Source of the DNA: Amphiscolops sp. MND2022
Lineage: Eukaryota
Direction: 5' to 3'
Assembly: GCA_964187785.1 (NCBI GenBank)
Contig: OZ076409.1
Location: 49,354,001-49,418,000 of the forward strand
DNA: 64,000 bases
A model generated the notes under the pieces. That model was not told where the DNA came from and did no database searches. It was given only the letters and a program-made list of their open reading frames with translations. Numbering within the stretch: the stretch's first letter is position 1; each line of letters opens with the position of its first letter. The translations under genes were made by a program, and so were the position numbers. Below, piece after piece: positions 19,730-56,273 of this stretch.

Positions 19730-19770
19730 TGGTATTTGGTCGGTTAAAATTGAATTTACGGATAAAAGTA

Positions 19771-31677: not shown

Positions 31678-31866
31678 GTTGAAGACTACTGAGAGGCAAT
31701 GTACAAGAAGTAAAGAAGAGGAGATAACAATGTATTATGAACTGTATCTCGAAGTAAGGGCAACAGCAACTAAACATAGTGTTTTGCATTTCATTCTAGC
31801 ATTTTCATGACAGGTGTTTGTAAATAATATCTTTAGCGTAACTGTTCTTTTTAGTACTCTGTCACA
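31677..31866 (-). repeat. 5' LTR of element 2
   Basis: Direct repeat of 26562-26751; abuts the PBS. Confidence 0.95.
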
Positions 31867-33609: not shown

Positions 33610-34294
33610 TGCGGCTTCATGAATATTCATAAAGTTTATAAACTAGTTAGTTAGAATTTTGTTAGATCTATGCTTAGTTACTTCTATTTTTTCCATCATG
33701 CTGGCATGACAATGACTCCCTAGGGTTCCTACAGACGGGCAAGGTCTGGTTAAATATCAAATCAACATTTACAATCCCTGGAAAATCCCGGAGATGCGTT
33801 GAAAAGCATTTGAGCAGAATTTTAACAAAAAACAGTCTAGACGCAAATGGGTAGCAACATCAGGACATTCATAATCATATGAAGCTTGACGTCTATGAAA
33901 CTCAAAACTTTTTGTTACTAAACCAGAAACTCAATTTTTTTTTCAGAAAAAGCAGACTCTTAAAGTGGCAAGTTTTTCTTCTAGTCACCCTGTAAAATCC
34001 ACTTTTAGTAATTTTTGAATACGTCATAAATTTGATTTCAAATTGATATGGGGCCACGTTTTGGTCCAGGGGTTAACTCGGATTTCCAGACATGGTCACG
34101 GGGTGTGAGAACTAGTAGGACGTAGGTTGGAGTTTCGCGGTGAACCAATTTTTCATGCTTGCAAATGTAGTGACTGTAAAGGGTTGCTCCTCTGGATTTT
34201 TCGGTGCTAAGCGACACGTTTCGAAGTTTTTTTTTCCACCTTAGGACTTTTTAGCACAATGCGACTCACCAAAGACAATTGTTGAAAAAGTCTT

Positions 34295-36621
34295 TGTCAC
34301 AGCCCGCTCCCGGTCTGGCTTGTGGTTGCAGACGGCTGAAGATTGGGAGAGGACACGGAGGTAATCTGAGATTCCCCAAATCTTATTTTAACTGGTAACT
34401 CTAAAACTTTATCCTTGAAATAAACTGTGACTAGAAATGCGAAAGCACAACTAAACTGCGCAAATTTCAACTGGAAATGAAAACAGAGAACAAAATGAAC
34501 CAAAATGATTTCACGCATTTCCGGCAAGACGCGTTTGTCACGTCAAAATAGCAACATTCGCCACCTGGAAACTAAATTGAATTACATTCTAAAACAAAGA
34601 AAGCATGGTCTAATCTAAATGAAAACGTAGTCAAAATCATCTTCCAAAAGAACATTAATCAGATCTAAAATAGAAAATACACCGAGATGACACACCGATT
34701 TGGTTTAAGCCCTTTTCTTAGAAAGGCAGCTTAATTACTCTTTGAACAGCAATTAAAATGATTTAGGACGTCAATACTGCGCTGAGTAAACAAAGCGGCA
34801 AAAGAAATAAGAATACATGTATATTTGTCGTCAGTAGGACGCAGACAAGTTTGAAGGCATACCAATTGACGTCACTGCCTCGCATACGCGTACCAGCAAA
34901 TCATTCCAATTATCCGCCTATACTAATAACATTGCTAGGAATCATTCCAATTTACCGCCACTGTGACGTCACTGCGCCGGCAGCTAGCGAGAGATTCATT
35001 TCTGAAATACTCGTCAGCATTGCGTCAAACTAGTCAAAATCTCTACTCTGCCAAGAAAACTCGTCAACATGACGTTGACAAGTTTATGAAATTGAATAAA
35101 GTGAATGAATTTGCTGAATTTAGTCAAGTTTTCATCGCGCAAATGCCGTTATTTCCTAAGGAGAGAAAATTGCAGACTGTTGCAAAGTGTATAACGAAAG
35201 CATTGTTGATTTTCCATGGTTTAAGGTCCCAATTTAGAATGCGTTTTGGCACATATAGGATAATTTCAACCCCACGTTAAGTAACAATCATGTATTCTTA
35301 ACGATAAAGGAATTTCCGCGCATAAACCATCTTATTACAAGATCTCACAGTAGATTAATTAGGAAGTCACAGTTTATTCTCTCCAACTAAAAGCATATTG
35401 TGTACCAGAAATGTATTTCTCATATATTTTGCATTTTTGTACTCTACAACATTGAACGCTGTACTTCTGATTGTGATCATGTTTTTCCATTATAGTACCT
35501 CCGTTGCTGTCCAGGTATTTACCTTGTGTTAGTGCTGTTATTTAACAAACGTTGTTGTTAATTTTGTAAATCTTGTCGTGTTTGACACGACATGACAAAG
35601 TTGCTAACAAAGTATTATTTTCATATCATGATTTCATTCCCATCTCTAGCAAAAGATTGAGTCCAAATTCATAAAATATCGTCCTAGCATCGTTCAAATA
35701 TTCCTATTTTGGAATTAGTCATATCATTTTTATCAAAGCGAAATTCAAAATCAGGTATTTGTTGTTCACGTCAGCGTCATCTCAGCGTCATCTTCCCGCA
35801 AACCAAAGCAGTAAAACAGGGAAGCATTTCCGGTTTGACAGACTGAAGTAATATCTACTTCCTGCTTGGGAGGAAGCAAAAGGACGCCGGGATGAAATGA
35901 TATGATCATGTTTGATGACTAATACTAGTTTAAAATTGTCGTGTCTTAAAAATCGACGAAATGTCAGCGCAAATTTGGGAACTTTGTGATTTTTTCATCG
36001 ATAAAACAGGAAATGACTAATTGTTCGAAGGAAATTAGGGATTATGGTCGTGATCAAATGATGCTGGGAGGGTATAAATGTGATAGGATTTGATGATTAA
36101 GGGACTCAGTCTTTTGCAATTGTACAATTCAGTTGAATTTTCAATTTCACTCTCGCCTTTTTCTACTTTGTCAGAAAAATCTTTGAAAGAAATTCAATTC
36201 TTCAAGATCAAACTTTTCTACAAAATGTCAACAACAAGAAGCCAAAAAAGAAGGAACGATCAGCAAAGCACCAGTGAGAACGTAAGTGAAGGCTTGATTT
36301 CACCCATAGTAGTAGGAAATCCTTGTTCTTTGAATCAGGACGATGAAGTAGCGGGGCCTTCTAGACCAAAATCCCCCCGGATTGAGAATAGTCTCTTTGA
36401 AAGCTTGAGAACTTCCTTAAAGGAGGAAATAACGTCAGAGATTAAGAATCTTGTTATTGAATCCCAGAAGGAGATGTTGAAACTCCTTAAACCTGAAACA
36501 AGAGGGATTATTAGAGAAAATACCGAGGAAGAGGTAGAGGAGGAAACTAGAAGTTTCTATACTCCTACAAAATCAGTGAGAATAAGTTCTACTCAAAACG
36601 ATCCGATAGCATGTCGTAACA
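34295..36621 (+). repeat. 5' LTR of element 3 (2,327 bp)
   Basis: tgtcacagcccg...tgtcgtaaca; roughly 99% identical to 48034-50360 by eye. Confidence 0.95.
36073..36111 (+). promoter_or_regulatory. Putative LTR core promoter (TATAAA plus Inr-like TCAGTC)
   Basis: TATAAA at 36073 and TCAGTC at 36106, upstream of the gag ATG at 36225. The sister LTR retains a TATATA and gggactcagtcttt. Confidence 0.5.
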
Positions 36622-37664
36622 TGGTGACAGGAGTCCTAACCGATTCCACAAACCAGCCAAAAAGAACAAAGGCCAGGTCTCAGAGCCAACCGCCGTCAAA
36701 AGAACGTCCAGTAGTGGCAAGGACTTTATTTGCAACAGATAAAAATGATAGCACTACTCTGCCCATGCCAAAAGCACTCACGGCGTCACTCCCAACCTTC
36801 GATGGGAAGTCGGAAAATTTCGAGCTTTTCGAAGACCTTTTTCGCAATAATATCAAAATGTATCCACACCTTACGGAAATCCAAAAACTAAACTATTTCC
36901 ACTCCCTGCTCAGAGGAGATGCTTTACAAGCATTTTGTAATATCGAAGATACGAAAAAGGATTCCCTTGATGAGATCATGACGATTTTCAAACGACGTTT
37001 CGGAGATTATTTGTACATGGCCAAGGGAAGATGCGAATGGGATGAGCTCAAACTCGACCCCTCGAACCAGAAACTCCACGAATTTCTGGATGTACTTCAA
37101 AAAACCGCCAAAGAAGCCTTCGGCTCTGAAGCCCAACAATTTATTGATAAGGCGATCTATGCAAAAATGCCAGACCATGTAAAGAAAATAATAAATAGAG
37201 CGTACCTTGAAGACAAACCCTACAACGACATCGTACTGCATCTAGAAAGGGAAATGAGACTTAACGGCCTCGGGGCGCCAGATGAAGTAAACCTGGTACC
37301 ACTTAACAAAGTAGAACCGGCCCCACCAAACACTGAGTCCAAACAGGCCGACAACACGACGCAAAACACCAAGAAAGGGTATTGCTTCTACTGCAACAAA
37401 TTCGGACACTACAAAGCGGAGTGTAGGAAAATGAAAAGAGATAAATGGATGCAAACCAAGAGAAACAATGGCCAAACCAGCAGCAGTTCAGGCAAACCAC
37501 TTAAATGCGACACGTGCGGAAAACCCCACAAAACAGAAAATTGTTGGAATGGAGCCAATGCTGCCAACGATCCGCGTCCCAAGCGCCGCACTACACAGGA
37601 ACAAAAAAGGGACACCCCAGACCAGATGACAACAACCGACTTTGCCACCGAACCAAAAAACTAA
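36225..37664 (+). CDS. gag: Gag of element 3, starting inside the LTR
   Basis: aaaATG at 36225 (the same start is used in the sister ORF 53139..53558); LPTFDGK capsid-like region; knuckles CFYCNKFGHYKAEC and CDTCGKPHKTENC. An alternative in-frame ATG lies at 36621. Confidence 0.85.
   Translation: MSTTRSQKRRNDQQSTSENVSEGLISPIVVGNPCSLNQDDEVAGPSRPKSPRIENSLFESLRTSLKEEITSEIKNLVIESQKEMLKLLKPETRGIIRENTEEEVEEETRSFYTPTKSVRISSTQNDPIACRNMVTGVLTDSTNQPKRTKARSQSQPPSKERPVVARTLFATDKNDSTTLPMPKALTASLPTFDGKSENFELFEDLFRNNIKMYPHLTEIQKLNYFHSLLRGDALQAFCNIEDTKKDSLDEIMTIFKRRFGDYLYMAKGRCEWDELKLDPSNQKLHEFLDVLQKTAKEAFGSEAQQFIDKAIYAKMPDHVKKIINRAYLEDKPYNDIVLHLEREMRLNGLGAPDEVNLVPLNKVEPAPPNTESKQADNTTQNTKKGYCFYCNKFGHYKAECRKMKRDKWMQTKRNNGQTSSSSGKPLKCDTCGKPHKTENCWNGANAANDPRPKRRTTQEQKRDTPDQMTTTDFATEPKN
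36622..36636 (+). other. Primer-binding site of element 3 (TGGTGACAGGAGT; tRNA-Leu-like)
   Basis: TGG directly after the LTR terminal CA. The tRNA identity is inferred. Confidence 0.7.
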
Positions 37665-37712
37665 TTACGCCGAGCCTGCGTTTTGGGGAGAAAGTAGACG
37701 CGAGGGCGTATT
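37655..37712 (+). promoter_or_regulatory. -1 programmed ribosomal frameshift signal (A AAA AAC plus downstream stem-loop)
   Basis: Slippery heptamer at 37655-37661, in gag phase just before the gag stop; pol is in the -1 frame. TACGCC (37666) can pair with GGCGTA (37705), with an inner tgcgttt/agacgcg stem. Confidence 0.8.
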
Positions 37713-40700
37713 CAACCGAGGATCCCCCCACCACATACGTTAACAACACAACGATTGAATGCAATGACACACCAACTGAAGACTGGCTAAGACGACAAGC
37801 ACTCGCTTCTATAAAAAGGCCATATCCACAAACTGAACAAGCAGAAACCTACACTCACGATAAAGACTACAGGGACAATCCTAAACAACAAGCAAATCGT
37901 CCTACCAACTTACCCCTCATCAACAGAGAACTCTCCGCTACAAACCAGGTAGAACAAAATGAAAGCGCCTCCGACGACCGCCTATCGTCAAAACAAAATG
38001 AAGGAGATAATCACGACTCCACCAAGACTTTTCTGTCCCCAGACGATTTCCCCACATCACTCAACTCAATCAAGGAGTACGTAGCCGAAAAGGATGGAGA
38101 AACATATATACCTCTCCACTCCACTATATTCCTCAAGAGCAGAAGGAGAATGCTGTACTTGCCACTAGAATTCGGTGAAATAACAATGGATGGACTTGTC
38201 GACTCAGGTGCGTTCATCAATGCCATGTCCTGGTCAGACTACAACGCAATCAAAATGAATAGTGATAGTTGTGTCATAAAAGAATATCCTCAACCTCCCT
38301 TCAAAATCGAATGCGCAAACGCACAACTAGAGCAACCAATAGCAACAGCGGACATCCAGTTCAACATCGGAACATATACCTTCACGGATACCTTCGTCAT
38401 CCTATCGAAAACGTCATTTCCCATCATAGGATTGAACTTCATGAGAAATCACCAAGCAGTAATTGACACTGCCAACGGGACCAATAATTTCCCACACGTC
38501 GAAATGACGCTAGCCATGACGGACGAGACGAAAAAATGCAACCCGAAACCGCTCCAAATAATGGCAGAAGGAAATCAAACCCTACCGCCCCAACAAACAA
38601 CAACAGTGAACGCAATAGTAATAACCACAAACATGCATGACGTCACTGGTGCGGTACAACCATTACCACAATTTGATGAAGCAGCAACAATCATTGTTGC
38701 ACCAGCACTAGCGACAGCCCACAACAAAAGGCTCAACATCCGAATCGCCAACTTAACGGATTTCCCTCATACAATAAAGAATCACACAAAACTGGCAGAA
38801 CTACAAATCCTCAAACCCGAGGACACGAAACAAATACGACCAGTAGACGCCGCTGCACTCAAATTGCTAGAAGATCCTGATGACACCCACATGTACATCA
38901 ATGAACTCATGAAAGCCAAAAAAACTGAACAAGGTGAGGAAAATTTCTGGTTTCCCACACCTGAGAACCCGGGAAACGAAGAAGAACATACGCCAATCCA
39001 ACGACGGATCCTGAAGGAAATCCGTGAACTAATCCAGAGAGAAGAGTTAGACCCAACCAAAGACCAGGATTCAAGACAAAAGTTCCTTGACATGTTTCAG
39101 TGGGAAGGTTCTCAAATCGAAGGCAACGACAGAAAGCAACTCGAGCAAACAATAGTCGAATACAACGATATCTTTGCCCGCCATCGCCTTGATATTGGAA
39201 TCAACAATAGCTTCAAAGTCAAATTAACTCCGAAAGACGAGCGCCCAATTTACACGCAAAGCCTGCCGGTACCAATCAACCTGAAAGAAGATCTAACAGT
39301 TGAATAAGCACTAACGCATAGGTACGGCATAATAACGACCCTACCATTCTCAAAATATGCAAGCCCAATCTTCGCACAACGCAAACCGAATGGCAACTTG
39401 CGACTACTCGTCGATCTACGAAAAATAAACGCATTAATCTCAGACGACTACATCAACAATAACCACCCAGTCAGCACCCTGTCAGATGCAGCTCAACATC
39501 TAGCTGGGAAAAAATTGTTTTGCAAACTAGACTGCTCACAGGCATATCATTGCCTACAGATGGCAGACCAACGATCAATCGAAATGCTAGCCTTCAACTT
39601 TGCAAGCAGAACGTTCGCCTACAAACGCCTAGCACAAGGACTGAGCAGAGCCCTGTCGGCATTTTCAAGCTTCATGCGAGAATACTTGGATAAAGTAATC
39701 AAGGCCGACCAATGCGCGCAGTACGTGGACGACATCGGAATTGCGGCCAACTCTGTGACACAACTGATACGCAACATTCGAGCAGTTTTTGAATGCATCC
39801 GAAGAGCGGGACTCAAGCTAACCATCGAAAAATGCCATGCCATTTCGGGGTAACTGAAGTCGAATTCCTTGGAAGAACGATCACACCACAAGGAATCGCC
39901 CCGCAGGATCATAAAATTCAAAAATTCCTAGCAAATGTGAGATTTCCAAAATCCAAGAAACAAGTACAAAGATACATCGGTTTTGTCAATTATTATCGCA
40001 ACTACATCCCGAGACTGTCTGAGAAATTGCTCGGATTCTATGAACTACTGAAAGCAGACAAGCAAATCAAAATCACAGAAGAACTACTCGACCATTACAA
40101 AGCCATGAACGCAGCACTGGCGCAAGCTTGCGGTTTGGCACTCAAACAACCAATCACAGGACGACAGTACGTCCTGATGACGGACGCCAGCTTCCGAGCC
40201 TCTGGCTACGCACTAATGATTGAGGAAGACAACGACAAAAAACTCAATTCAAAAAAGAAGACATTTGCACCAGTCGCATTCGGATCAAAGGTGTTTTCCC
40301 CGGCTCAAATCAAAATGTCAATTTACTGCAAGGAATTTCTAGCAATCTATCACGCCTTCCTTGAATACAGCCATATTCTATGGGAAACAACCCTACCAAC
40401 TCTTGTGATGACCGACAACAGATCGGTAACGCGTTTCTTCCAAACAAAAGCAATCCCGCCTACTCTGTGGAATGCATGTGATTATGTACTACAATTCAAC
40501 TTCCACATAATGCACGTCGCGGGTACGCAAAACACGGCAGCCGATTTTCTGTCAAGAATTGATCTCAATCCCAAAGAAAGAGTTGAACTAAAAATCAGAG
40601 AGGATATTACAATCAGGCCCATCCAAGTGAATCTCCAATCAACGGACGTCGCGGATGAGGAACAACTTTTCTTCCTTCCGGATGAAACAATTGAAACGGA

Positions 40701-42597
40701 AGAAGAAATCCTATTGCAGAAAGAACAAACTAGACAAAATGCGCGCGACGAGGAGACGACCAAAATCAAAATAGCCATCAAAGAAACCACCCCAATCCCA
40801 ATAAATAAGGCATCTTATACCTTTGGGGCAATAAAGGAAGACGCACGTATTAGAGTCGAGCAAGACTCGAATTTGGTTTTCAAAGCAATCAAAAAGAAAT
40901 TGATATGTGAAGAATACGACAAACACCTTCTACAGACCGATCCGACAGCCAAGCGCCTCCTACTCCACGAGAACAGACTAATAGTGAAAGATGGAGTACT
41001 AATGCGCAAATATTACGAGGAATGTGGCCAAGTCACTCACCATCAAATTTTAATCCCCGAACATTTAATCACAGAACTCTTGAAAGCAATTCATGGACAA
41101 ATGGGAAAGCATCCAGGAATCACAAAAATGATCCAAGAATGCCGATCAAAGTACTACTACCCAGGATTAGCAAAGAAGATCAGACAGTGGGTAATGCAAT
41201 GCGAAGAATGCATCAGATACAAACGAATCAACAACAGCCAAATCCGACCAAAGATGATCAACAATACGGAACACGTCCTAGGTCCAGACGATATCCTAGA
41301 AATTGACATATTGCCGAACTTACCAAACTCCGCGGGATATCAAAACATCGTCACGATGATTGATGTCTTTTCACGTTACCTATTTGCATATCCAACGCAG
41401 AATAGCACAGCAAAAACAATAGGACGATGTATTGTCGACGTCATGACAAGACACGCATACTTGCCAACATTAACCTTATCAGACAAAGGCTCACAATTCC
41501 GATCAGAAATCGTCGCAGAGATAACCCAGATACTTGAAATTCAAATCAGCCACGCATCTACGAAGCATGCACAAACAATCGGAATTCTGGAAAGAACGCA
41601 CGCTTCAATCAAAACCGCCCTAAAAACGGGCGAACGACGCTCAATGTGGCACAAATATGTCCAAATCGCAGTGATGAATTACAATACAACATACCATGAA
41701 ACTCTGGGCTGCGAACCATCTACAGTATTTCACGGACGTATACCTTACAACGTTCTCGATTTAAAACTGGGCATCAAGCCAAAGTGGAAAACCACCCCCC
41801 ATTCGGATGTAGCAGAACAACTCCAAAAACAAATTGACGAAGTGCGAGCGACGGCAAAGGACAACATCATGCTGTCCTATCTCAAATACAAAAAATACTA
41901 CGACCGCAAAGCAACCGGGGCTCCATTAAAAATCAACGACTACTGCTATATACTTAACCCGAAAGCCGACAATCAGTCGACAAAGTTTGCGTTTCAAGAT
42001 TGCATCTGGACAGGACCGTATGTAGTAATCAAAGTGCTTTCAAACAACAACTACACAATACGAAAAATTGGCACAAGATATACACAAACACTACACAGAA
42101 TTCGCATACGACCTTACGTGCCAGAACAACGCTTGCCCGACGTCACAGTACGAGCCAACGACTACCTTCCTGACCCAGAAGTTACAGTCTCACACAATGA
42201 ATGGTATGCGGTATCATGGGAAATGGATTTTGGAAAGCAGATTGATGAACACGAAACATCGGAAAGCACAAGAAACAATCACCACGTAGAAATACGAGAA
42301 GTGACAAATGCAAACGACGGCAACACAACGCCACAAGCGTCAAATGATAACAGCGAAGATACAAATGACGAGGCACCGCCGTCCCCGGATTTTTCAAATC
42401 TTACTACGGACGTGGGAGATAACCCATACATACGCCGTCCCCCACCCCTTGAAAGCCCACCCATTCCCCCAAGAACACCGCCTACAGTTGTCGGATATAA
42501 CCCGAGACAAACAGCAAAGTACAATTTGAGACCTAATCCTAAGCCTAATGCTAATCCTGACTTCAGACGACTTGACGCTATGACTACGACTCACTAA
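37655..42597 (+). pseudogene. pol: Pol of element 3 (PR, dUTPase-like linker, RT, RNase H, IN) with two lesions
   Basis: LVDSGA protease, YVDD, TDAS, HHCC, DDE and GPY motifs. In-frame TAA at 39305-39307 and a 5-nt duplication (tgcca) at ~39833-39842 that shifts the frame. Confidence 0.92.
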
Positions 42598-42818
42598 AAG
42601 AAAAGATCATATCTGGAGTCCAGCCCGAACCGGACTGACAATTTTCCAATTTACAAGCATACTACAGCCTGAATAAACGTCTTTTTTTTCTTTTTTATAT
42701 ACAACTCCTACAGTCTACAATTTCATGTGGCACATCATAAAGCTACAAAGAAAATAAACAAAAGATATCAACACAACAACAACTAATGAAATCCGAGTTT
42801 ACTGCAACAAAACTGAAG

Positions 42819-45800
42819 TCATTTCTTCTTCGAGCCAGACGTAGCTCCTTTACCCGCAGATTGCTTTGACTTCTTCTTAGACTTCTTCACATCGACTACA
42901 TCAGGATCAACAGCACCTTTTTCACGTCCCAACAAAGAGGCAACACTCCCATACACCTTGGTCTTGCTGAATCGAAAGGAACTGGATCCACTAGACGAAG
43001 GGACAGGTGGGGCAGAAATAACAGACGCAGCTGGACTTTCAATCAAGGAGGAACCTTCGCAATCACCACCACTCTCGCCATAGGGTTGACCATCACTGAG
43101 ACTCCTTTTCCGACTCACTCGTTCATCAAACAGACGACGATATCGATTGACGAAAGCAGATTGATTCACCCCACATAAACCGTCCCATGGATCAAACCCA
43201 CCAGACGACATAAAAGTACTGGCAGTAGCAATTGCTTTCCGCACTTCATTCATCGTAAACTGGGTAAAGAAGGACTTCAACCTAAACTCAGATGACACAA
43301 CGCAACTTTGAACACCTTGCACACAGGATGCAACCACGTGAGACGGAACAGCACAATCGCTGAGATCAATCTCCACAGCAGGAAAATCAATGCGAGGCCT
43401 CAATACTGCCAGACAACATAGTTTGAACACGCTACACAATGACTTGCGCGCCAGAAAGCAATAGTCGGACAAAAGATAATGCCTTACGTCACTGATTGAC
43501 TCAGCACTGACTCCACTATTGGCATGCCGAGACCGGGCATCCACAACCAAGTTTGAATACTCCTCCACGGCTGCTTTCGACTCTCGCGAAGAGACAACTC
43601 CACTCCGCTCCAATACTCGAATCAATGTCTGGAACAATACTAGCATATGTTGATCGTCCCCTTCGAGTAACAATTCAGGACAGAAACAGTAAACGCCCTG
43701 AGGAAGCTCTCCAGTAACGGGCTGCTGACCCAAAATGGCGATAACTAGGCGATCAATAAATTTAGGACAAAGATCCTGGAAGACGCGAAACTCTCCTCCT
43801 TTGTGACTACGCAACACAGCACCAAAATCATGGTTATGAAGGAAATCACAGGAAGCAACATTTTCGAATCCGTCCAATTTCTGTAGGTCCATGTAACCCT
43901 CCCACGAATTCAGACTCGGCAACGACCCAAGTTTACGACTTCGTGACAGAAGACAGTACACAAATTGGCAAATTTCCATGTAACCATGGAAACCATAATC
44001 ACTTCGCCCTGAAGACTGCTTCTTGAACGAACAGGAATCTGAAACACAAGACACACCATCATACTCGGCACTAGCCATTTTTTCCTCACCCCCACACAGT
44101 ACTACGCAAGAACATCACACAAATACCACTATCTCGCGAACTGCAAATACGATACACCACAACAGCATACTCACGAAGTTCAAGCACATGCAGAAAAAGA
44201 CCCAGGTGCAACCCTCCAGTAGCCTCAGAGTACACATGCCAGTCAGTGCAACGCATCTACAACAACAAATCGCCAACAGTCAACAACACCTATACCTGTG
44301 CGAACAACAATATACGAAACGATCAGCTACGCAAACAAGACAAAATCATTACCCGGCCAGCAGCAGTTTTGAAATGTCGGGGTCCAGTGTGTCTCACAAA
44401 ATCCTGAACAGACGACCACACTGAGATCAAGTCAGCAACTACACCTCGTAGATCAGCGAATTTGACATGCCCAGCAATGATGCATCGTCGGAGACACAAC
44501 GTACTCTCGCACCAGGGCTCTTGAATTGCACCCCGCAAGCGCAGCATCAAAAAGTCCACCATGGCAGTTGTTTCCAGTCCACCAAAAACCTCCTGATGCG
44601 CGAGCTGATAGCAATGCAAGAAGACGTCCACAGTGAATTCCCGATACATCAGAAACTCTCGCCCGTCAACGCGATTGTCACTTAGAATCCTCAGCAAGGT
44701 AGGACTACAGCCCTGACATGACAAAGGCATCTGGCATGACGCAGTGCTATCAATGACACGTGACAAACCAGCCAAGTCAGCCTCGGGAATGCGTTGCCCA
44801 GAAGCCTCAACCCTCACACAAATGCTCATCAGGGTATGCTCATCAAAGGTCTGCACGAAACACTTGTGGTACCCATCGCTCTCCATGAAAGAAACACTGT
44901 ACTCTCGGAAAGCGCCAATTCGAGCGAACAAGGAGCGCAACACACGAGGGAACAAAGCCTGGCAGATCAGCGACTAAAACACAAAAAATTTTTTTCCAAC
45001 ACATGAGGCCCGATACAAAGATGAGCCTGCGCACTCTACATACAACCCCCCCCCTCACGAATAACAAATACTAAACTGCCGGACATTTTGACTTACTAAC
45101 CAACGACTCAGGACGACTCCAGTGCACATTGTATAGTGGGTTCTCGGGACCCAGTGTCGCCCGGAAACACCCCCACAATCTTCGCAACAGAAGGTAACTG
45201 CCACCAAACCGCAACAGCTCGATCAGACAGTTCACCATTGACATCAGGGGCACACTGGAATCGGCTTGCACACAGGCAGGGAGCAAGTCCTCAGGAAAAC
45301 TAAACCCCTCATTTTTCCCTTTGTTAGGTCGATTGCGATATTCCTCCAGCTGAGCGTCACTGAGCACCATTGGGTCCATCAGACGATTAAATACCGGCAG
45401 ACCATTTTGAACACGATAGGTCACATCCAGCAACCAGTGCCGTTTTCCGAAGAAGTGACGACTGAACTCTGCTACCCCACGTGACTCCATGGACACGTCC
45501 CGCTGGCAAATCATGCAGTGAAACATCTTAGCAGAACCAGTGCTGGAACCACTGACAAAGAGCTCATATATCGGATTGCCAGTGACCATATCGCGACGAA
45601 GACGATTCCGAGGGCTGTACACTCGCTTACGACCACGATCGGCACTCTCCAAGGTCGTCTCCATACGGCTGATTAGCTCCTCAAACCCTGTAACAACCAA
45701 ACTCTGGCATCATGAAACTCAATTAGAAGACGTACGCCACCCGGAAGAGGAAAAAAAAGAAAAAAAGGAAAAAGAGAAAAACAGGGAAAAGAAGGAAAAA

Positions 45801-46944
45801 GATGCCTAACATCTATCAACAGACGAAAAGAATATCAAAATAACTCCACCAATCCAACTGAACTTACGTGCAACGAACGGATCCAAGGCATGTCCTTCTA
45901 CGTCGGAAAGTCCTCCAGACGACACCCCGACTTGCTGTGCGGGTGTAAGAGGCAGCACACCACTAATGCCCTGCTCATCGTCACTGTCGTCCACACGGAA
46001 CCGAATTATGGGAGCGCCAAACTGGAAAACAGTCTCAGCAGGCTGTTCTGACGCTGATCGCATCTCTGACCCGCTCCCGTCGGGAATCATCAATTGCACT
46101 ACAACAAGTTAGTTACAGTTAAGACATAATACCTCCTCACATAACAAAGCGACAAGAGAAGGACATAACCTCAGAAACACGCCAATGGCAATTGACCTAC
46201 ATGAGAATACACAAATATCATATAAATATCAAAGCAACAATACGACAACTCACCACGTTTGACTTTGGTCCCTCCGTCGCCAGAACTTCCTTCTGTTCTC
46301 TTTCGACGAAGAAACGATGAGAATCGAGGAGAAACAGTTTTCTGCCCTTCAGCATTTCTCTGAGCAGGGGGGGATAACCCCTCACCTCCGCGAGAGTCCA
46401 TCTTGTCGACCGCGTTGGCCACCTTAGCAAGAGCCGCCAGAGGAACGTCTGAATCTTCAGAACAACACGTAGGAATGACCGAAGCAGCGGGAGGAGAAAC
46501 CTCAGTCACTATCTCACCACCCCCATGTGTTGACTCTGCGAGAGGCTCGAGACTAATTCCAGAGAGGTCACCAGGGAGAGAAGCCCTCAACTCAGCGACA
46601 GAACCACCAGCCAGAGGAGGTGAAGGAGTCGGATCTAGCAACAAACAAAACAATCCCGTGTTGACGCGTCAGAAAATCTAAGCTGTGAAAATACCATAAA
46701 CCAGAAGAGGCCTATCTGTCACAAGTGTTATTCACAAAAGCTTAATGGACCGGGGAAGAATAAGCTCACCTGTTGCTTGCCGACGAATGACATCCCCATC
46801 ACGCTGGTAGATGTCCCCCTCAGAGAAAACAAACTGAGTTTCATTACCACTCTGAGCTCCGGTATCACGCTGAAGGGAAGGAGGATTCTGATCCAAAAAA
46901 AAACAGCTGGGATCTGAAAAAACAGCCGAAATTGACGTCGGCAT
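42819..46944 (-). CDS. Spliced antisense accessory gene of element 3, ~1,098 aa: BED-like zinc finger plus hAT-transposase-like body and Lys-rich tail
   Basis: Predicted exons 46944-46770, 46634-46254, 46098-45868, 45687-45101, 44973-44353, 44256-44175 and 44038-42819. All six introns are GT-AG and join into one stop-free 3,297-nt frame. The same junctions and phases occur in the sister copy. The start codon is uncertain. Confidence 0.8.
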
Positions 46945-47190
46945 AACGTCGACAAAAAGGTTACCTGGGTTAAGAAATTAATCCGATACCCTAAAATGGC
47001 GTCATAAAAACGGTGACAAAATCAAAAGTTAGCTAAGCTAGCGAAATTGACGTCGGCATAACGTCGACAAAAAGGTTATCTGGGTTAAGAAATTAATCCG
47101 ATATCCTAAAATGACGTCATCAAAACGGTGACAAAATCAAAAGTTAGCTAAAGCTAACGAAAATGACGTCAGCATAACGTTGACAAACTT
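46927..47190. repeat. ~115-bp tandem repeat (x2.3) rich in GACGTC/CRE-like sites
   Basis: Units start at 46927, 47042 and 47158 (cgaaattgacgtcggcataacgtcgacaaa...). Confidence 0.85.
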
Positions 47191-47414
47191 GGCTAAACGG
47201 ATTAATTCAATTTGCAGCCAATAGAAAACGACGTTGGCACTGCGTCAACACCTAAAGATTAAAAAGGATTAAAACGATCGATTAACCAATCAGAATGGAG
47301 GGATTTTATCCCAATATTCTCCTTAATCCTAATTAATCCCAAATTCATTGTGGAACAATCAAAGGAGAAATTCAGCAACCCTACAACTCACGACTCGACA
47401 ACGGCAGAGCAAAA
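46945..47414. promoter_or_regulatory. Putative internal bidirectional promoter
   Basis: Lies between two divergent ORFs; contains the tandem repeats and CCAAT boxes (agccaatag ~47216, aaccaatcag ~47285); strongly conserved in the sister at ~56274-56745. Confidence 0.5.
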
Positions 47415-48137
47415 ATGAACTCTCTCAAAAACGTATACGAGCTAATCGACATTTCGTCCAGCGAAGATGAAAGTGAACCTGTGGAGAGATCGTCGACCCC
47501 TCTTCACAGAGAGACGCTGCCTAACTATAGAGTAATACTAAAAAATTCCCTCTCCTCTGCAGAAGCCGTGGCTGATGAAGAAGAATATTTCGACGTGTCA
47601 GCAGACTCGCTTGAAGCAAGCTACAAAAGGATAAGACTGAATTCAAGTCTGTCCTCCATTGACTCTAGCTCCTACCCTCAACGAGAAGGGAATGCAGTAA
47701 CACAAGCAGGTGAAGAAATCCCGGACAGTCCTGAAAGCCCGGACGAAAGCATGTCGTCGGATGTGTTCATCGTGGAGGAAGCCATTGGCAACGAGCCATC
47801 ATTCTCGGGCAGCAAAGTCATGGAATACCTCGAAAAGGTACACCAAGAAGATTCATCATCATACTTTGTCACGCCACCAGGAACTCTCAGAAAGATAAAT
47901 TTCACTCACGCGAGCCCATTAAACGATCTCGAAGCGGAACGCAGCTTTAACGGCTCGGAAGAAACTGAGATGAGACCACCACCACTTACGTTTTTGCCAA
48001 GACAACCAGGTGTTTTCCCCAGAGGAGCGGCCCTGTCACAGCCCGCTCCCGGTCTGGCTTGTGGTTGCAGACGGCTGAAGATTGGGAGAGGACACGGAGG
48101 TAATCTGAGATTCCCCAAATCTTATTTTAACTGGTAA
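47415..48137 (+). CDS. 240-aa acidic, Ser-rich accessory protein with SUMO-interacting-motif-like N-terminus, overlapping the PPT and 3' LTR
   Basis: Intact in both copies (sister 55563..56273, 236 aa). The first 20 codons differ by 8 synonymous and 0 non-synonymous codons. Confidence 0.85.
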   Translation: MNSLKNVYELIDISSSEDESEPVERSSTPLHRETLPNYRVILKNSLSSAEAVADEEEYFDVSADSLEASYKRIRLNSSLSSIDSSSYPQREGNAVTQAGEEIPDSPESPDESMSSDVFIVEEAIGNEPSFSGSKVMEYLEKVHQEDSSSYFVTPPGTLRKINFTHASPLNDLEAERSFNGSEETEMRPPPLTFLPRQPGVFPRGAALSQPAPGLACGCRRLKIGRGHGGNLRFPKSYFNW

Positions 48138-50360
48138 CTCTAAAACTTTATCCTTGAAATAAACTGTGACTAGAAATGCGAAAGCACAACTAAACTGCGC
48201 AAATGTCAACTGGAAATGAAAACAGAGAACAAAATGAACCAAAATGATTTCACGCATTTCCGGCAAGACGCGTTTGTCACGTCAAAATAGCAACATTCGC
48301 CACCTGGAAACTAAATTGAATTACATTCTAAAACAAAGAAAGCATGGTCTAATCTAAATGAAAACGTAGTCAAAATCATCTTCCAAAAGAACATTAATCA
48401 GATCTAAAATAGAAAATACACCGAGATGACACACCGATTTGGTTTAAGCCCTTTTCTTAGAAAGGCAGCTTATATACTCTTTGAACAGCAATTAAAATGA
48501 TTTAGGACGTCAATACTGCGCTGAGTAAACAAAGCGGCAAAAGAAATAAGAATACATGTATATTTGTCGTCAGTAGGACGCAGACAAGTTTGAAGGCATA
48601 CCAATTGACGTCACTGCCTAGCATACGCGTACCAGCAAATCATTCCAATTATCCGCCTATACTAATAACATTGCTAGGAATCATTCCAATTTACCGCCAC
48701 TGTGACGTCACTGCGCCGGCAGCTAGCGAGAGATTCATTTCTAAAATACTCGTCAGCATTGCGTCAAACTAGTCAAAATCTCTACTCTGCCAAGAAAACT
48801 CGTCAACATGACGTTGACAAGTTTATGAAATTGAATAAAGTGAATGAATTTGCTGAATTTAGTCAAGTTTTCATCGCGCAAATGCCGTTATTTCCTAAGG
48901 AGAGAAAATTGCAGACTGTTGCAAATTGTATAACGAAAGCATTGTTGATTTTCCATGGTTTAAGGTCCCAATTTAGAATGCGTTTTGGCACATATAGGAT
49001 AATTTCAACCCCACGTTAAGTAACAATCATGTATTCTTAACGATAAAGGAATTTCCGCGCATAAACCATCTTATTACAAGATCTCACAGTAGATTAATTA
49101 GGAAGTCACAGTTTATTCTCTCCAGCTAAAAGCATATTGTGTACCAGAAATGTATTTCTCATATATTTTGCACTTTTGTACTCTACAACATTGAACGGTG
49201 TACTTGTGATTGTGATCATGTTTTTCCATATTAGTACCTCCGTTGCTGTCCAGTTATTTACGTTGTGTTGGTACTGTTATTTAACAAACGTTGTTGTTAA
49301 TTTTGTAAATCTTGTCGTGTTTGACACGACATGACAAAGTTGCTAACAAAGTATTATTTTCATATCATGATTTCATTCCCATCTCTGGCAAAAGATTGAG
49401 TCCAAATTCATAAAATATCGTCCTAGCATCGTTCAAATATTCCTATTTTGGAATTAGTCATAGCATTTTTATCAAAGCGAAATTCAAAATCAGGTATTTG
49501 TTGTTCACGTCAGCGTCATCTCAGCGTCAATTTCCCGCGAACCAAAGCAGTAAAACAGGGAAGCATTTCCGGTTTGACAGACTGAAGTAATATCTACTTC
49601 CTGCTTGGGAGGAAGCAAAAGGACGCCGGGATGAAATGATATGATCATGTTTGATGACTAATACTAGTTTAAAATTGTCGTGTCTTAAAAATCGACGAAA
49701 TGTCAGCGCAAATTTGGGAACTTCGTGATTTTTTCATCGATAAAACAGGAAATGACTAATTGTTCGAAGGAAATTAGGGATTATGGTCGTGATCAAATGA
49801 TGCTGGGAGGGTATAAATATGATAGGATTTGATGATTAAGGGACTCAGTCTTTTGCAATTGTACAATTCAGTTGAATTTTCAATTTCACTCTCGCCTTGT
49901 TCTACTTTGTCAGAAAAATCTTTGAAAGAAATTCAATTCTTCAAGATCAAACTTTTCTACAAAATGTCAACAACAAGAAGCCAAAAAAGAAGGAACGATC
50001 AGCAAAGCACCAGTGAGAACGTAAGTGAAGGCTTGATTTCACCCATAGTAGTAGGAAAACCTTGTTCTTTGAATCAGGACGATGAAGTAGCGGGGCCTTC
50101 TAGACCAAAATCCCCCCGGATTGAGAATAGTCTCTTTGAAAGCTTGAGAACTTCCTTAAAGGAGGAAATAACGTCAGAGATTAAGAATCTTCTTATTGAA
50201 TCCCAGAAGGAGATGTTGAAACTCCTTAAACCTGAAACAAGAGGGATTATTAGAGAAAATACCGAGGAAGAGGTAGAGGAGGAAACTAGAAGTTTCTATA
50301 CTCCTACAAAATCAGTGAGAATAAGTTCTACTCAAAACGATCCGATAGCATGTCGTAACA
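48034..50360 (+). repeat. 3' LTR of element 3
   Basis: Direct repeat of 34295-36621; preceded by an atypical PPT, AGAGGAGCGGCCC (48021-48033). Confidence 0.95.
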
Positions 50361-50989
50361 GTCTTCGATATATTATCCCACAATTTTCGTTTTTTGAGAA
50401 GTTTCCGGTTCAAGAAAACCGTTTTCCGAGTTTCTAGGGTGATCTCTGAATTTTAATCACTTGGGGCTGATGAGAATTTAGCCATTAACAGTTCAAAAGT
50501 ACTGCAGTTGTTTTTTAGCACTGTGTAACTTTCGAAACAATTCACGGTAAAGCGATACGCGCTTCACTTTGAAAAAAGCTTTCATCTGATATTACCCGTT
50601 TTGCAAACTTGAAAGGTCTCCATTTGGGTTACTGGCTTTACAGGTTTTCGAAAGAAAAATTGAATGGTTTTTTTGAAATGTGTTCTTAGATAATTTGAGT
50701 TAGGTAAAAGCGGTTTTCGGGTCTCATGTATTTTAGGCACGGAAACTTCGTTGAAAGATTCGAAATATTTTTATTTTGCGTAGTTGAAACGCTTTATTCC
50801 GTTTGAGCTTCGAGCAGGTCGCCAAATTGTGCCATTGCCGGCTTCTCAAATTACCGACCAATAAGTCTCTTGAGTTCAATAGGGAAGATCTTCGTGAAAC
50901 GTTTGCACAAATATATGGTCAAATGTTGCACAAAAGAGAACATTATAACACATATTCAATATGGTTTCAGCAAGAAATGATCATGCATT

Positions 50990-51950: not shown

Positions 51951-52051
51951 AACACACTTACCTACTTTCTTCTTATGTTTTTGCATTGCCTTAACTGAGA
52001 AACAATTGACACCGAAAACAGTCGAGAAGACAACCTTCGAGCAAACACAGA

Positions 52052-53005
52052 ACAAGACGAGAACGTCTAAAGTCGGCGCCATATCTAAGGCTCAAAAAGC
52101 GCAAAACAATTTTTTGGGAAAAAACTTGAAATTTTTGAACAATTTTTTTTTCAAAAAAAGTCGCCTAGTGCCGAAAAATGTACAAGGGGGACCCTTCTGG
52201 TTTTATTAACATACATTCCGTTGCAAAATATCAAAAACCTCGAAGGGGGACCATTTGGGGACATTAAAGTTTTCGAAAAAAAGTCGCACAGTGCCGAAAA
52301 AAATCCAAAGGAGGGACCCTTTAGGCACGTCCGGATTTGTGGGTTTCCTCTAAAAAGTAAATAAAAAGTAAAAAACCAAAGGCGGGACCCTTTGGAATAA
52401 CTTAGATGCGTTTCCGGGGTACTCGTTTAGTTTCCTTTAGTTGAAGAGTACTGAACGTTAACGTTCGTCGCTTCGAGTCTGTCTTAAATAAAAAAAAACG
52501 AGCGACTGTAATATTTATACAAGACGGGAACGTCTCAAGTCGGCGCTATATCTAAGGCTCAAAAAGCGCAAAACATTTTTTTTGGAATAAAACTTGAAAT
52601 TTTCGAAAAAAAAATTTCTTTCGGAAAATGTCGCACAGTGCCGAAAATGTAAAAGGGGGACCCTTTTTGATTTATAAACACGCATTCTGTAGCAAAATAA
52701 CAAAAAACTCAAAGGGGGAGCCTTTGGGGACATTAAAAAAATTTCGAAAAAAAGTCTCACAGTGCCGAAAAAAAGTCGAAAGGGGGGACCCTTTAGTCCC
52801 GTCCGGGCTTGTAGGTAACGTTTAAAAAGTAAATGAATGCGCTCCCCGTTTGCCTTTACCGGTCCAGTATTTTAGTACTGTATTTAGTAGTTGAACGTTA
52901 ATTTTAACGTTCGTCGCTTCGAGTCTGTCTTAAATAAAAGAAAAGAAAAACAACGAGTGACTGTAATAGTCGGGCTCTTTTCTTAAGAAAAGCGCCGACT
53001 AAAAA
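52052..53005 (-). mobile_element. Two head-to-tail HINE/DINE-1-like copies (52052-52511 and 52519-53005)
   Basis: Both begin acaagacg.gaacgtct.aagtcggcgc. The second ends with the palindrome agtcgggctctttt-cttaag-aaaagcgccgact followed by an A run. Confidence 0.7.
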
Positions 53006-53179: not shown

Positions 53180-55666
53180 TGTTACGACTAATGTTCGGGT
53201 CGTTTTGAGTTGAACTTATTCTCACTGATTTTGTAGGAGTATAAAAACTTCTAGTTTCCTCTTCTACCTCTTCCTCGGTATTCTCCCTAATATTTCCTCT
53301 TGTTTCAGGTTTTAGGAGTTTCAACATCTTCTTCTGAGATTCGACAAGAAAATTCTTGATTTCTGACGTTATTTCCTCTTTCAAGGAAGCCCTCAAACTT
53401 TCTAAGAGGCTGTTTTCAATCCGGGGGGATTTTGGTTTAGAAGGCCCCGCTACCTCATCGTCCTGGTTTAGAGAACAAGGATTTCCTACTACTTCACTTA
53501 CGTTCTCACTGGTGCTTTGCTGATTGTTCCTTCTTTTCTGGCTTCTTGTTGTTGACATTTTGTTGTAGAAAAGTCTGACCTTGAAGAATTGAATTTTTTT
53601 CAGAGATATTTACTAATAAGGTTAAACAAGGCGAGAGTTTAGTGAAATTGAAAATTCAACTGAATTGTTCAATTGCAAAAGACTGAGTCCCTCAGCCAAC
53701 TAAAATCATCGTATATATACCCTCCTAGCATCATTTGATCACGAGTTAAAATCCTAATTTCCTTCGAACATTTAGTCATTTCCTGTATTTTCAGTGCAAA
53801 AATCATTTTGTTCCCAATTTTGCGTCGACATTCCGTCAAATTTTGAGACACGGCAAATCTAATCTAGCATTAGTCATCAACCATAATCATATCATTTCAG
53901 CTCGGCGTCCTTTTGTTCCCTCCCAAGCAGGAAGTAGATATTACTTCAGTCTGTCAAACCGGAAATATTTCCTTGTTTTGCTGCTTTGGTTCGTAAGAAA
54001 CTGACGCTGAGATGACGCCGGCATGAACAACTAATGCCTGATTCTGAGATTTCGCTCGAGGAAAAAATGCTATGACTAATGTTTTCAGCTCTGCACTTTC
54101 CAACGATGCTAAGAAGAAATGAGAACAAGATTAAAGAATTAGCAACAATCTCAACTTAGTTTCAAATTGAATGATTAATGATTAACGAAATAAAACAACG
54201 ACACATTGACGCTTGATGAATTGATGGACCAAATTGTCTAATTCAGACTTCTGTCCTAATTTATTAATATTTCAATCACAAATACTGTCTAATATTTTTT
54301 TAGCGTCAATTTAATGATTATACATAACACGCTGTCAACAGATTTTAACTTGCACATATGATAGTAATTTTGAACATAAACGTCTGACGACGCGGGGACG
54401 GCACTTTATGGATTTGCTGAACAGGCAAAAGTTCAAAACCTTCTATCACTTGATCCCAATCATTACAAAATGTACAATAGCGACACAAAACATTTGTTCT
54501 GAATTTATGCACATTGGGGTTAAAATAATGACCGTCCTGATTAGGAAACGACGACGACACAACAAAGTTTTACCACACGCTTTATGTAGTACAAAATACA
54601 AACATATGAAAATATATTTCCAATACGAAAATACCATCGATTTACTTTCGTCATGCCCATAAACTGTGACTTTCACTTACATGATACAGGAAATTCCATT
54701 TCAAATTAAGTTTTAGAGCAAAATTAAACCGGCAAGGGAAATGTTTGACGGAAACGTGGCGTTGGTCCTCAAATCCTTCACTAATCGTCTTGTTAAATTA
54801 TCATATACCTTAAGCGTATTCCTAGTACTGATTAATTTGAATGGTATTCATCATATCTTTTTGGATGGATTAAAACAGCCTGCTTTGGTGGAATTTGGAC
54901 GTAACGTGGACGTACGTATTAGTACTAGGCCTGGTCCAGTATAGTGGACGTAACGTGGACGCAAATTTGAAGTGAGAATTAGCTGTCTGACAGCACCGTG
55001 ACGTCACAATGGCGGAAAATTGGAATGATTTCAGAGTAGTGTCACTAATATAGGCAGTAAATTGGAATGGTTCTCTAGTGAGCGCGGACGGAACGGTGAC
55101 GTCACACTATATACTTTCAAGTCTGCTTCTTACCGACGTCTAATGTACATGTATTCTTATTTTGTTTACTTAGCGCAGTGCCAACGTCCTAATCCGCACT
55201 AATTGCTGTTCAAAGTGCAATTAAACTGCCTTTCTTAGAAAAGGTGTAATTATTTCAGTGTGTCATCTCAATGTACTTTCTATTCTAGATTCAAATAATG
55301 TCCTTTTTCCAATGGCGATTTTGGGTATGTTTTCGTTTAGATCGGTCTATGGCCCTTATTTCACGACGTGTTTTAATTTAGTTTTCAGGTGGCGAATGTT
55401 CTTATTTTGGCGCACTAAAGACGTCCCACCGGAAATGTGTGAAATCATTTTAGTTCATTTTAGTTTCTGTTCTCATTTTCGTTTAAACTTTACGTAAGTT
55501 AGGCGTGCGTTTTCGTATTTCTAGTCACAGTTTATTTAAGATTAGGGTTTAAAGTTTTCAAGTTAGTAATTGAAATACCATTTGGGGAATCGCAGGCTGC
55601 AACCATGGCCTCTTCCGATCCCCACTTGTCTGCAATGACAATCCAGTCCGGGATCGGGCTGTGACA
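53180..55666 (-). repeat. 3' LTR of element 4 (2,487 bp)
   Basis: Minus-strand tgtcacagcccg...gtcgtaaca; PPT AGAGGAGTGGCCC at 55667-55679; contains the Gag N-terminal ORF 53139..53558. Confidence 0.9.
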
Positions 55667-56273
55667 GGGCCACTCCTCTGGAGAAAACACCTGGTTGTCT
55701 TGGCAAAAACATAAGTGGAGGAGGCCTCATCTCAGTATCTTCCGGGTCGTCAAAACTGCGTCTCACTTCGAGATCGTTTAGTGGGCCCCTCATCTTCCTG
55801 GGGGTTCCTAGTGGCGTGACGAAGTATGATGAGGAATCTTCTTGGTGCACCTTTTCAAGGTATTCCGCGACATTGCTGCTTGAGATTGATGCTTCGTTAC
55901 TGATGGCTTCTTCTGCGACGAACACATCCGACGACATGCTTTCGTCCGGGCTTTCAGGACTGTCTGGAATTTCTTCACTTGTTTGTGCTACGTCGTTCCC
56001 TTCGTGCTGTGGGTAAGAGTTAGAATCGATGGAAGACAGACTCGAATTCAGCTTTACCCTCTTGTAGCTTGCTTCAAGCGAGTCTGCTGACACATCAAAA
56101 TATTCTTCCTCATCAGCTACAGCTTCTGCAGAGGAGAGGGAATTTTTTAGTATTACTCTATAATTGAGTATCGCCTCTCTAGGAAGAGGGGTTGAAGATC
56201 TTTCCACAAAGTCACTTTCGTCTTCACTTGACGAAATGTCAATTAACTCATAGACATTTTTGAGAGAGTTCAT
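55563..56273 (-). CDS. 236-aa acidic SIM-like accessory protein of element 4
   Basis: Collinear homolog of 47415..48137; intact; crosses the PPT into the LTR. Confidence 0.85.
   Translation of the reverse strand: MNSLKNVYELIDISSSEDESDFVERSSTPLPREAILNYRVILKNSLSSAEAVADEEEYFDVSADSLEASYKRVKLNSSLSSIDSNSYPQHEGNDVAQTSEEIPDSPESPDESMSSDVFVAEEAISNEASISSSNVAEYLEKVHQEDSSSYFVTPLGTPRKMRGPLNDLEVRRSFDDPEDTEMRPPPLMFLPRQPGVFSRGVALSQPDPGLDCHCRQVGIGRGHGCSLRFPKWYFNY

Follow-up and report, generated by a model that had tools for sequence, protein, structure and literature searches.

The question raised by this locus is whether an animal long terminal repeat (LTR) retrotransposon can carry a protein gene of its own that is broken up by introns, and keep those introns through reverse transcription. 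The locus lies in a 64,000-nucleotide stretch of the Amphiscolops sp. MND2022 genome (GenBank assembly GCA_964187785.1, contig OZ076409.1, positions 49,354,001 to 49,418,000, forward strand), referred to here as the window, and all coordinates are positions within it. Between pol and the 3′ LTR of a Ty3/Gypsy-type element, an antisense gene of seven exons had been predicted from the letters of the sequence. Our analysis of the window and of related copies elsewhere makes it very probable that the element carries its own multi-exon antisense protein gene, that this gene is under selection, and that it is inherited in the manner of a cassette. Among animal retrotransposons, hardly any passenger gene with introns is known.

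The gene model was rebuilt with a script in which the predicted intron lengths and the predicted lengths of exons 2 and 6 were imposed, and GT and AG were required at the intron ends. The seven minus-strand segments and six GT-AG introns, with the lengths and phases given by the original prediction (Table 1), were all found in the sequence, and the joined exons formed one open frame of 3,297 nt (1,098 amino acids) ending at 42819. The donors of introns 1 to 6 read GTGAGC, GTGAGT, GTAAGT, GTTAGT, GTAATG and GTGAGT, and all six acceptors consisted of a pyrimidine tract followed by AG. The branch point proposed for intron 2 was likewise present, as CTAAC located 9-13 nt ahead of the AG, and exon 6 (44256-44175) had the expected translation, MRCTDWHVY...HVLEL. 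An alternative placement of intron 3, giving exons of 274 and 544 nt, likewise left the frame open; comparison with other copies favoured the placement that gives 231 and 587 nt. A seven-exon model of this kind might be an over-fitted chain of chance frames, joined by chance GT and AG in decaying sequence. Such a chain would be in keeping with the second open placement of intron 3, with the lack of a Pfam domain in the product, and with the first ATG of the model (46944) being an accident of one homopolymer length, as described below. The evidence that decided against it came from other copies of the gene.

A search of the genome (1.07 Gb in 1,929 contigs) with the DNA of exons 4 and 5 gave 579 first-look candidates and at least 42 matches, which fell into a main subfamily at 96-100% identity, a second subfamily at 78-79% and one intermediate copy. 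In 12 other copies of the main subfamily, 142 of 144 splice dinucleotides were kept, the exceptions being one copy truncated at the site and one change from AG to AA, and insertions and deletions fell mostly in introns. The seven copies of the second subfamily kept all of their splice dinucleotides (84/84), and in these copies the exons had diverged less than most introns. Compared with the window copy, exons 4, 5, 6 and 7 were 82-83, 78-79, 79-81 and 72-77% identical with 0, 0, 0 and 3 gap columns, respectively (36 in exon 7 of one copy), and introns 2 to 6 were 60-63, 51-55, 51-53, 64-69 and 53-57% identical with 10-75 gap columns. Exons 3 to 7 of the second subfamily measured 231, 587, 621, 82 and 1,223 nt; the lengths of exons 4 to 6 were the same in all seven copies and that of exon 3 in six, while exon 7 was 3 nt longer than in the window copy (4 nt in one copy). 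Intron 1 was an exception, being 83-84% identical and above its flanking exons (72-81%), and it may hold a regulatory element. The intermediate copy, L028 (G000:C2:39321592-39327791), was 82-92% identical; its exon 4-5 region was rearranged, with a segment duplicated, and two aligned acceptor positions had bases other than AG.

Substitution rates were estimated by the Nei-Gojobori method. Between exons 3 to 7 of the window copy and of the open second-subfamily copy, the non-synonymous rate (dN) was 0.112 and the synonymous rate (dS) 1.35, giving a ratio (omega) of 0.083; exon 6 alone gave 0.04-0.09, and two branches of the main subfamily gave 0.147 between them. The original prediction had named this ratio as a check, and a value of 0.08 is not near 1. 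Together with the conserved junctions and the constant place beside pol, it supported the proposal that the gene is real, maintained, borne by the element and under purifying selection, rather than captured junk. The same measurements bear on a regulatory RNA, in which the antisense transcript itself would act, for example by pairing with genomic RNA into double-stranded RNA that feeds small-RNA silencing, with coding being secondary. Such a transcript would converge on pol and share 4 kb of complementary sequence with the genomic RNA, and extracts of one source describe antisense non-coding transcripts in other retroelements (PMC7264820). An RNA regulator, however, leaves unexplained an omega of 0.08 with saturated synonymous sites, as well as gaps in multiples of three, conserved exon lengths and faster divergence of introns, and we consider it very improbable.

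The gene was also found well beyond the two subfamilies. With the exon 4 protein as query, the genome gave 6,580 first-look candidates, and all 150 of those that were scored matched at E<2e-98 with 76-100% amino-acid identity, 139 of them without a stop. Nine loci belonging to four further lineages had exons 1 to 7 in order, with frame changes between exons, and at every one of the nine the antisense gene adjoined the end of pol in convergent orientation. From the acceptor of intron 3 through the acceptor of intron 6, 60 of 61 applicable homologous sites in these loci were canonical, the exception being a CT donor, and a donor stood exactly after the 82-nt exon 6 in seven of the eight loci that bear intron 6. 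Conservation of the junctions, the other check that the original prediction had named, was thus seen in the second subfamily and in four further lineages, and it was implied in open reading frames (ORFs) from other assemblies.

One of these lineages had no intron 6, and its exon 6 was fused in frame to exon 7 at the predicted junction. The loss was seen in 7/7 copies of that lineage, namely the first locus and 6/6 further ones. Precise loss is what recombination with a spliced complementary DNA (cDNA) would give, and it would be a rare marker of RNA-mediated recombination within a retroelement; it is the strongest stand-in available for transcript evidence.

Homologous proteins in public assemblies ended at the same borders. 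A phmmer search with exon 7 against 1.84 billion representatives returned 388 cluster representatives at E<=1e-3, of which 51 reached E<=1e-30, and a word-indexed search returned 153 homologues of exon 4 and 43 of exon 5. These were unnamed ORFs of ENA assemblies, exon-sized and ending at exon borders. Where an ORF ran past the end of exon 4, the next residue was Val (GTN) in 84 of 87 cases, and past the end of exon 5 it was Val in 28 of 29; the residue ahead of exon 4 was Gly or Glu in 42/42 ORFs, and that ahead of exon 7 was Asp or Val in 29/30. As Val is encoded by GTN and the last base of an intron is G, these counts fit GT and AG at the same junctions. One homologue, P0099, was a single 890-amino-acid ORF on a 4,009-nt contig, with no introns. 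Its alignment to the spliced product of the window copy was colinear, spanned 889 columns and contained 230 identities; at the exon 4/5, 5/6 and 6/7 junctions it showed no more than small gaps. Scanned with the exon 4 alignment, JGI metagenome contigs yielded no relative, and a search for longer homologues with exon 4 gave none.

For a chain of chance frames, these results left practically no room. It could not account for the contrast between exons and introns and the same exon lengths at ~20-28% exon divergence, for the omega of 0.08, for junctions shared by four further lineages, for the precise intron loss, or for hundreds of homologous ORFs that end at predicted exon borders. It is already refuted.

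The start of the gene was not where it had been drawn. The ATG at 46944 was in frame only through a run of nine T (T9) in exon 1 of the window copy, where 12/12 other main-subfamily copies had eight (T8), and it lay within a 115-bp tandem repeat. In 10 of those 12 copies the frame began with ATG GAT CA(G/A), and this family start codon corresponds to 46896-46894. An in-frame stop precedes the family start codon in the second subfamily, and the part of exon 1 upstream of it is probably 5′ untranslated region or promoter repeat. The window copy and one further copy of the main subfamily had an open frame without the family ATG.

The sister copy, carried by a second element at the end of the window, also required revision. 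The sister and window elements were 92% identical in the DNA of pol and 80-85% in their LTRs, and their antisense regions were barely alignable. Protein-guided mapping found exons 1, 4, 5, 6 and 7 of the sister clearly and exons 2 and 3 weakly. All six junctions had been claimed to match in position and phase, along with the lengths of exons 2 and 6. Exon 6 was indeed 82 nt long (59415-59496), and the intron 3 acceptor, intron 4 and the intron 5 acceptor were canonical at the same protein positions, as was intron 6 (70 nt) in its splice sites. The donor of intron 1, in contrast, was GC (56915), and no GT was present where a 381-nt exon 2 would end. Nor was the sister copy intact, as had been implied: its frame contained stops at 57333, 58777 and 59256, and exon 7 was thrown out of frame twice. 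The sister antisense gene is a pseudogene, decayed from another cassette lineage.

How far the gene and its carriers share a history was examined in eight elements compared with the window copy. The proportion of synonymous differences was 0.21-0.63 in the integrase part of pol and 0.70-0.82, a level of saturation, in antisense exons 4, 5 and 7; for non-synonymous differences, values ranged from 0.03 to 0.07 in pol and from 0.07 to 0.36 in those exons. Distance in one part did not follow distance in the other. The lineage nearest in pol (non-synonymous difference, pN, 0.032) was further away in exon 4 (0.123), and a lineage more distant in pol (pN 0.050) was nearer in exon 4 (0.070). In a sliding comparison, identity ran at 80-98% through pol, fell sharply to 45-65% at the antisense stop (~42800), stayed low throughout the gene and rose again to an island of 82-91% at 47200-47400. 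These patterns suggested that recombination has placed old, divergent antisense cassettes on pol backbones that resemble one another; the alternative, a mutation rate elevated in this region, seems unlikely at such a scale. The antisense gene appears to behave as a separately inherited cassette, far older than the pol backbones that carry it.

The carrier in the window (34295-50360, 16,066 bp) is a complete LTR retrotransposon, of Ty3/Gypsy type as judged from its Pfam domains and their order. Its host is an animal: the genome encodes Wnt proteins (best E 3e-45), a family specific to metazoans. Self-comparison of the window showed its LTRs to be a 2,327-bp direct repeat, 98.9% identical, with TG...CA at both LTR ends and a 5-bp target duplication, GTCTT, on either side of the element. 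A primer-binding-site-like (PBS-like) sequence, TGGTGACAGG, directly follows the 5′ LTR, and the purine-rich AGAGGAGCGG directly precedes the 3′ LTR. From gag to pol, the Pfam matches were DUF1759, Asp_protease (weak), RVT_1, RT_RNaseH, and Integrase_H2C2 with rve; BEL/Pao-specific Pfam families gave no match. The pol of the window copy contained an in-frame TAA at 39305-39307, between the protease and reverse transcriptase parts, and a frame change near 39836, inside the reverse transcriptase, where it differed by 5 nt from the sister copy. The pol of the sister copy had a stop of its own close to the same place. Both copies look non-autonomous, despite the 98.9% identity between the LTRs of the window copy. 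A sense-strand frame of 266 amino acids (47337-48137, plus strand) spans the start of the 3′ LTR and had no Pfam match, and the region 47400-48200 was highly variable (50-66% identity) among copies that were otherwise alike.

An antisense orientation shields introns from the splicing of genomic RNA, and this reasoning is established. In the genomic RNA of the element, the six GT-AG introns would appear as CT..AC, remain unspliced and be copied into each new insertion, so that the introns would survive retrotransposition because the gene is antisense to the genomic RNA. Intron retention was indeed seen across lineages, the precise loss of intron 6 apart. Transcribed from a promoter of its own, the gene would give a transcript whose spliced mRNA encodes a protein of ~1,082 amino acids, counted from the family start. 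The strong purifying selection indicates that this protein matters for the spread of the elements that carry it, and an ancient, separately inherited gene would have been recombined onto closely related pol backbones along the way.

A candidate for that promoter is a non-coding island upstream of the gene, ~700-900 nt inward of the 3′ LTR. In a 200-nt window it was 82-91% identical across five compared lineages, where the gene body was saturated. The inverted CCAAT boxes ATTCTGATTGG and TTTATTGG were invariant in 8/8 aligned sequences, as was a 17-nt block, TTGTCAACGTTATGCTG, that abuts a TGACGTCA motif. The latter, which we take to be the consensus of the cyclic AMP response element (CRE), was intact in seven of the eight and read TGCCGTCA in the sister copy. 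Two 115-bp repeats with more CRE-like sites come after the island. The motif GACGTCA occurred 29 times in the window against 6.1 expected, with clusters in the LTRs and ahead of the antisense gene. In the LTRs, CRE-like GACGTCA palindromes were present three per LTR, ~100 bp apart (34767-34971 and 48506-48710; 54999-55104 in the sister). It is plausible that the island is the internal promoter of the antisense gene, and transcription probably starts from this CCAAT/CRE island together with the 115-bp repeats, also CRE-bearing, just upstream of exon 1. The presence of GACGTCA in both places suggests that the promoters of the LTR and of the antisense gene may answer to the same factor.

The predicted protein would consist of a fast-evolving, low-complexity N-terminus, a zinc-finger-like motif, and a basic Ser/Lys tail, with exons 4 and 5 appearing as two strongly constrained core regions. 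The motif, C-x2-C-x16-H-x5-H, lies in exon 4, and its C57, C60, H77 and H83 were each at least 90% conserved in 47 sequences. Exon 7 was modelled with a mean predicted local distance difference test score (pLDDT) of 77.6, and most 10-residue blocks over residues 11-210 averaged at least 90; it is confidently predicted as an all-helical domain with no recognised fold. In a language-model search, P0099 brought up FAM200/ZBED5, DUF4371 and DUF659 clusters at 0.79-0.82, below the 0.9 trust level, and exon 7 gave no usable match. A search of the genome for DUF4371 gave no match and was uninformative, as control genomes gave none either.

These leads raise the possibility that the gene is real but a passenger, that is, a gene of the host or of another mobile element, such as a distant, inactive hAT/ZBED-type relative, captured once in antisense orientation and perhaps self-serving. 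Besides the P0099 leads, all of which were below the trust level, the spacing of the exon 4 motif resembles, we presume, that of a BED or C2H2 finger. The exon 5 model starts strand-strand-strand-helix, at low confidence, and the plant antisense ORFs bear transposase-related domains, as far as extracts of one source describe them (PMC4408406). A captured hAT/ZBED-type gene was, on the other hand, not borne out by Pfam, where Dimer_Tnp_hAT, zf-BED, DUF4371 and DUF659 gave no match at E<=10, nor by any PDB sequence match, and the confident exon 7 domain was unlike any solved structure. Long purifying selection in a multicopy element would also be hard to sustain without benefit to the carrier. 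We regard the passenger explanation as improbable; it concerns origin, moreover, and is compatible with a present role for the element. The Pfam search matched no bZIP family, as an HBZ-like protein would require, and no Transposase_28 or plant mobile domain at E<=10, as a plant-type product would.

A selected antisense gene that belongs to the element remains our preferred reading, and for its function a tentative suggestion can be made, which we would rate somewhat below an even chance. The protein may be a nuclear, nucleic-acid-binding accessory factor that regulates the expression of the element or counters host silencing, a role modelled on retroviral accessory proteins. More broadly, the gene could be an exchangeable cassette for host interaction or regulation, belonging to an abundant Gypsy superfamily of animals, with a fold not seen before and its own CCAAT/CRE promoter, that outlasts pol backbones and is shuffled as retroviral env and accessory genes are, its antisense-protected introns giving it expression like that of a cellular gene. 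This broader picture is conceivable but rather unlikely.

Several points weigh against the antisense gene as described. At the position of the family start codon, the window copy has TTG, and the frame was open from the family ATG to the stop in only 3/12 other main-subfamily copies and 1/7 second-subfamily copies (1,080 codons). Many of the frame breaks fall within homopolymer runs, where the assembly could be in error. A C-run in exon 2 varies among the second-subfamily copies L021-L027, with differences of 0, 1 or 2 C, and its length decides between an open and a broken frame; like the T8/T9 difference of the window copy, the variation could reflect homopolymer errors of the assembly. No AATAAA or ATTAAA was present within 430 nt downstream of the antisense stop, and transcription, start site, splicing and polyadenylation site of the gene have all been deduced from sequence. 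The ENA assemblies that contributed homologous ORFs may include this same species. The original prediction had named as a further check that every copy lie inside paired LTRs: the gene adjoined pol, in convergent orientation, at 9/9 loci, and paired LTRs were confirmed for the window copy only. As for the protein, with Pfam relaxed to E<=10 the exons and four homologues yielded a single match, to a zinc finger and below threshold (zf-C2H2_ZN292, 14.8 bits against a cut-off of 27), and profiles of the exon 4 and exon 5 alignments had no match in PDB at E<=10. The exon 7 model had no fold match: the best Foldseek hit in PDB had an E of 1.9, the best match in a wide structural search a Z of 4.9, and the best in BFVD an E of 0.011 at a template-modelling (TM) score of 0.10. 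The exon 5 model was unreliable (pLDDT 57.8), and its fold search, which gave generic helical matches only (best Z 8.1, to a designed protein), was uninformative at that confidence. The proposed function is without homology support.

The original prediction knew of no described animal Gypsy element with such a gene, and the literature agreed in so far as it turned up no multi-intron antisense gene in an LTR element of an animal; this is weak evidence of absence, and subscription journals and repeat-database entries lay outside the search. Among animals, the giant Athena/Terminon elements of bdelloid rotifers house numerous accessory genes, which occur on both strands and in some cases contain introns. 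They are Penelope-like, telomere-tied and not LTR elements, and we know of no protein common to them and the element described here. HBZ, a small bZIP protein with one intron, is transcribed from the 3′ LTR and has a spliced form. The gene described here differs from HBZ in encoding ~1,080 amino acids, in its six introns, in matching no bZIP family and in an apparent promoter inside the element. The deltaretroviral genes HBZ of human T-cell leukemia virus type 1 (HTLV-1) and APH-2 of HTLV-2 are both described, in extracts of PMC11963269, as minus-strand protein genes with nuclear products linked to CREB. That link may be compared with the CRE-like motifs enriched in the LTR of our element and upstream of its antisense gene.

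The closest likeness was found in plants. Ty3/Gypsy elements of the Tat/Retand group contain antisense ORFs between pol and the 3′ LTR, according to extracts of three sources (PMC11963269, PMC7264820, PMC4408406). In these extracts, gene23 of maize Grande and the ORFs of rice RIRE2, Silene Retand and PvRetro13 occupy the same place, in the same antisense orientation, as the gene here; as here, the ORF is present in most copies or lineages, and tandem repeats occur in the same region. The product of Grande is described there as nuclear and expressed from its own internal promoter (PMC11963269, PMC7264820, PMC4408406). The plant products, however, are said in the extracts to carry Transposase_28 or plant-mobile-domain signatures, and neither was found here. 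The plant genes are described as single ORFs, the word "intron" occurring 0 times in the available text of PMC11963269 and PMC7264820, whereas six conserved introns were found here, and their hosts are plants, in contrast to the animal host and unrelated protein of this element. An intron within an LTR retrotransposon is known from Ogre, of the plant Tat lineage, where it lies on the sense strand between gag-protease and pol (extract of PMC4408406). It is spliced from the element's own transcript in that account, whereas the introns here belong to a separate antisense gene. CERV, encoded by the C. elegans element Cer1, is an additional protein whose target, within the nucleus, is the RNA of the element, as an extract of PMC10309623 has it, and by that description it is a possible functional analogue.

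Extra genes of LTR retrotransposons are known mainly as env-like ORFs in sense orientation and, in the case of plants, as single ORFs in antisense orientation. An antisense gene with six introns, under strong purifying selection, in many lineages and in up to thousands of copies (the 6,580 first-look candidates), would widen that picture. It would be a concrete case of a retroelement whose spliceosomal introns outlast reverse transcription by virtue of their orientation, and a natural system for the roles of an element-borne accessory protein in regulation, nuclear steps and counter-defence, in which lineages differ sharply in the cassette and little in pol. If the gene is indeed an exchangeable cassette, animal LTR retrotransposons can be "complex" in the sense of complex retroviruses. 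There is also a practical side: the loci resemble ordinary multi-exon genes and would be picked up by gene predictors, inflating gene counts and creating a large "orphan" family unless they are recognised.

Table 1. Features of the antisense gene, its host element and the sister element in the window (lengths in nt unless stated otherwise)
Feature	Position	Strand	Remarks
Target-site duplication GTCTT	left copy 34290-34294, right copy 50361-50365		
5′ LTR	34295-36621	+	2,327 bp, TG...CA ends, then PBS-like TGGTGACAGG
gag open frame, stop to stop, starting within LTR	36087-37664	+	DUF1759 match
pol: protease, reverse transcriptase, RNase H, integrase	37505-42597	+	
Exon 7	42819-44038	-	1,220 nt incl. 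stop; predicted helical domain, then Ser/Lys-rich tail
Intron 6	44039-44174	-	136 nt, phase 1; precisely absent in one lineage
Exon 6	44175-44256	-	82 nt
Intron 5	44257-44352	-	96 nt, phase 0
Exon 5	44353-44973	-	621 nt
Intron 4	44974-45100	-	127 nt, phase 0
Exon 4	45101-45687	-	587 nt, conserved C-x2-C-x16-H-x5-H motif
Intron 3	45688-45867	-	180 nt, phase 1
Exon 3	45868-46098	-	231 nt
Intron 2	46099-46253	-	155 nt, phase 1, CTAAC near 3′ end
Exon 2	46254-46634	-	381 nt, low-complexity coding sequence
Intron 1	46635-46769	-	135 nt, phase 1
Exon 1 as first predicted	46770-46944	-	175 nt, from ATG 46944
115-bp tandem repeat, two copies	46927-47151		carries CRE-like GACGTCA motifs
Conserved non-coding island upstream of antisense gene	47130-47340	-	candidate internal promoter
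TGACGTCA motif in island	47171-47164	-	
ATTGG boxes in island	47290-47286, 47222-47218	-	
3′ LTR	48034-50360	+	
Sister element	53180-64000, cut off by window end	-	antisense gene on + strand, ~56782-60765

The remainder of the window contained no host gene and two smaller Gypsy elements. These compact Gypsy-type elements (14069-20027 and 26562-31866, minus strand) are ~5-6 kb each and without an extra gene, and their LTRs, of 239 bp and 190 bp, are 99-100% identical. An unrelated dispersed repeat of ~440 bp was present at 6835-7284 and 52042-52968, with 82-96% identity.

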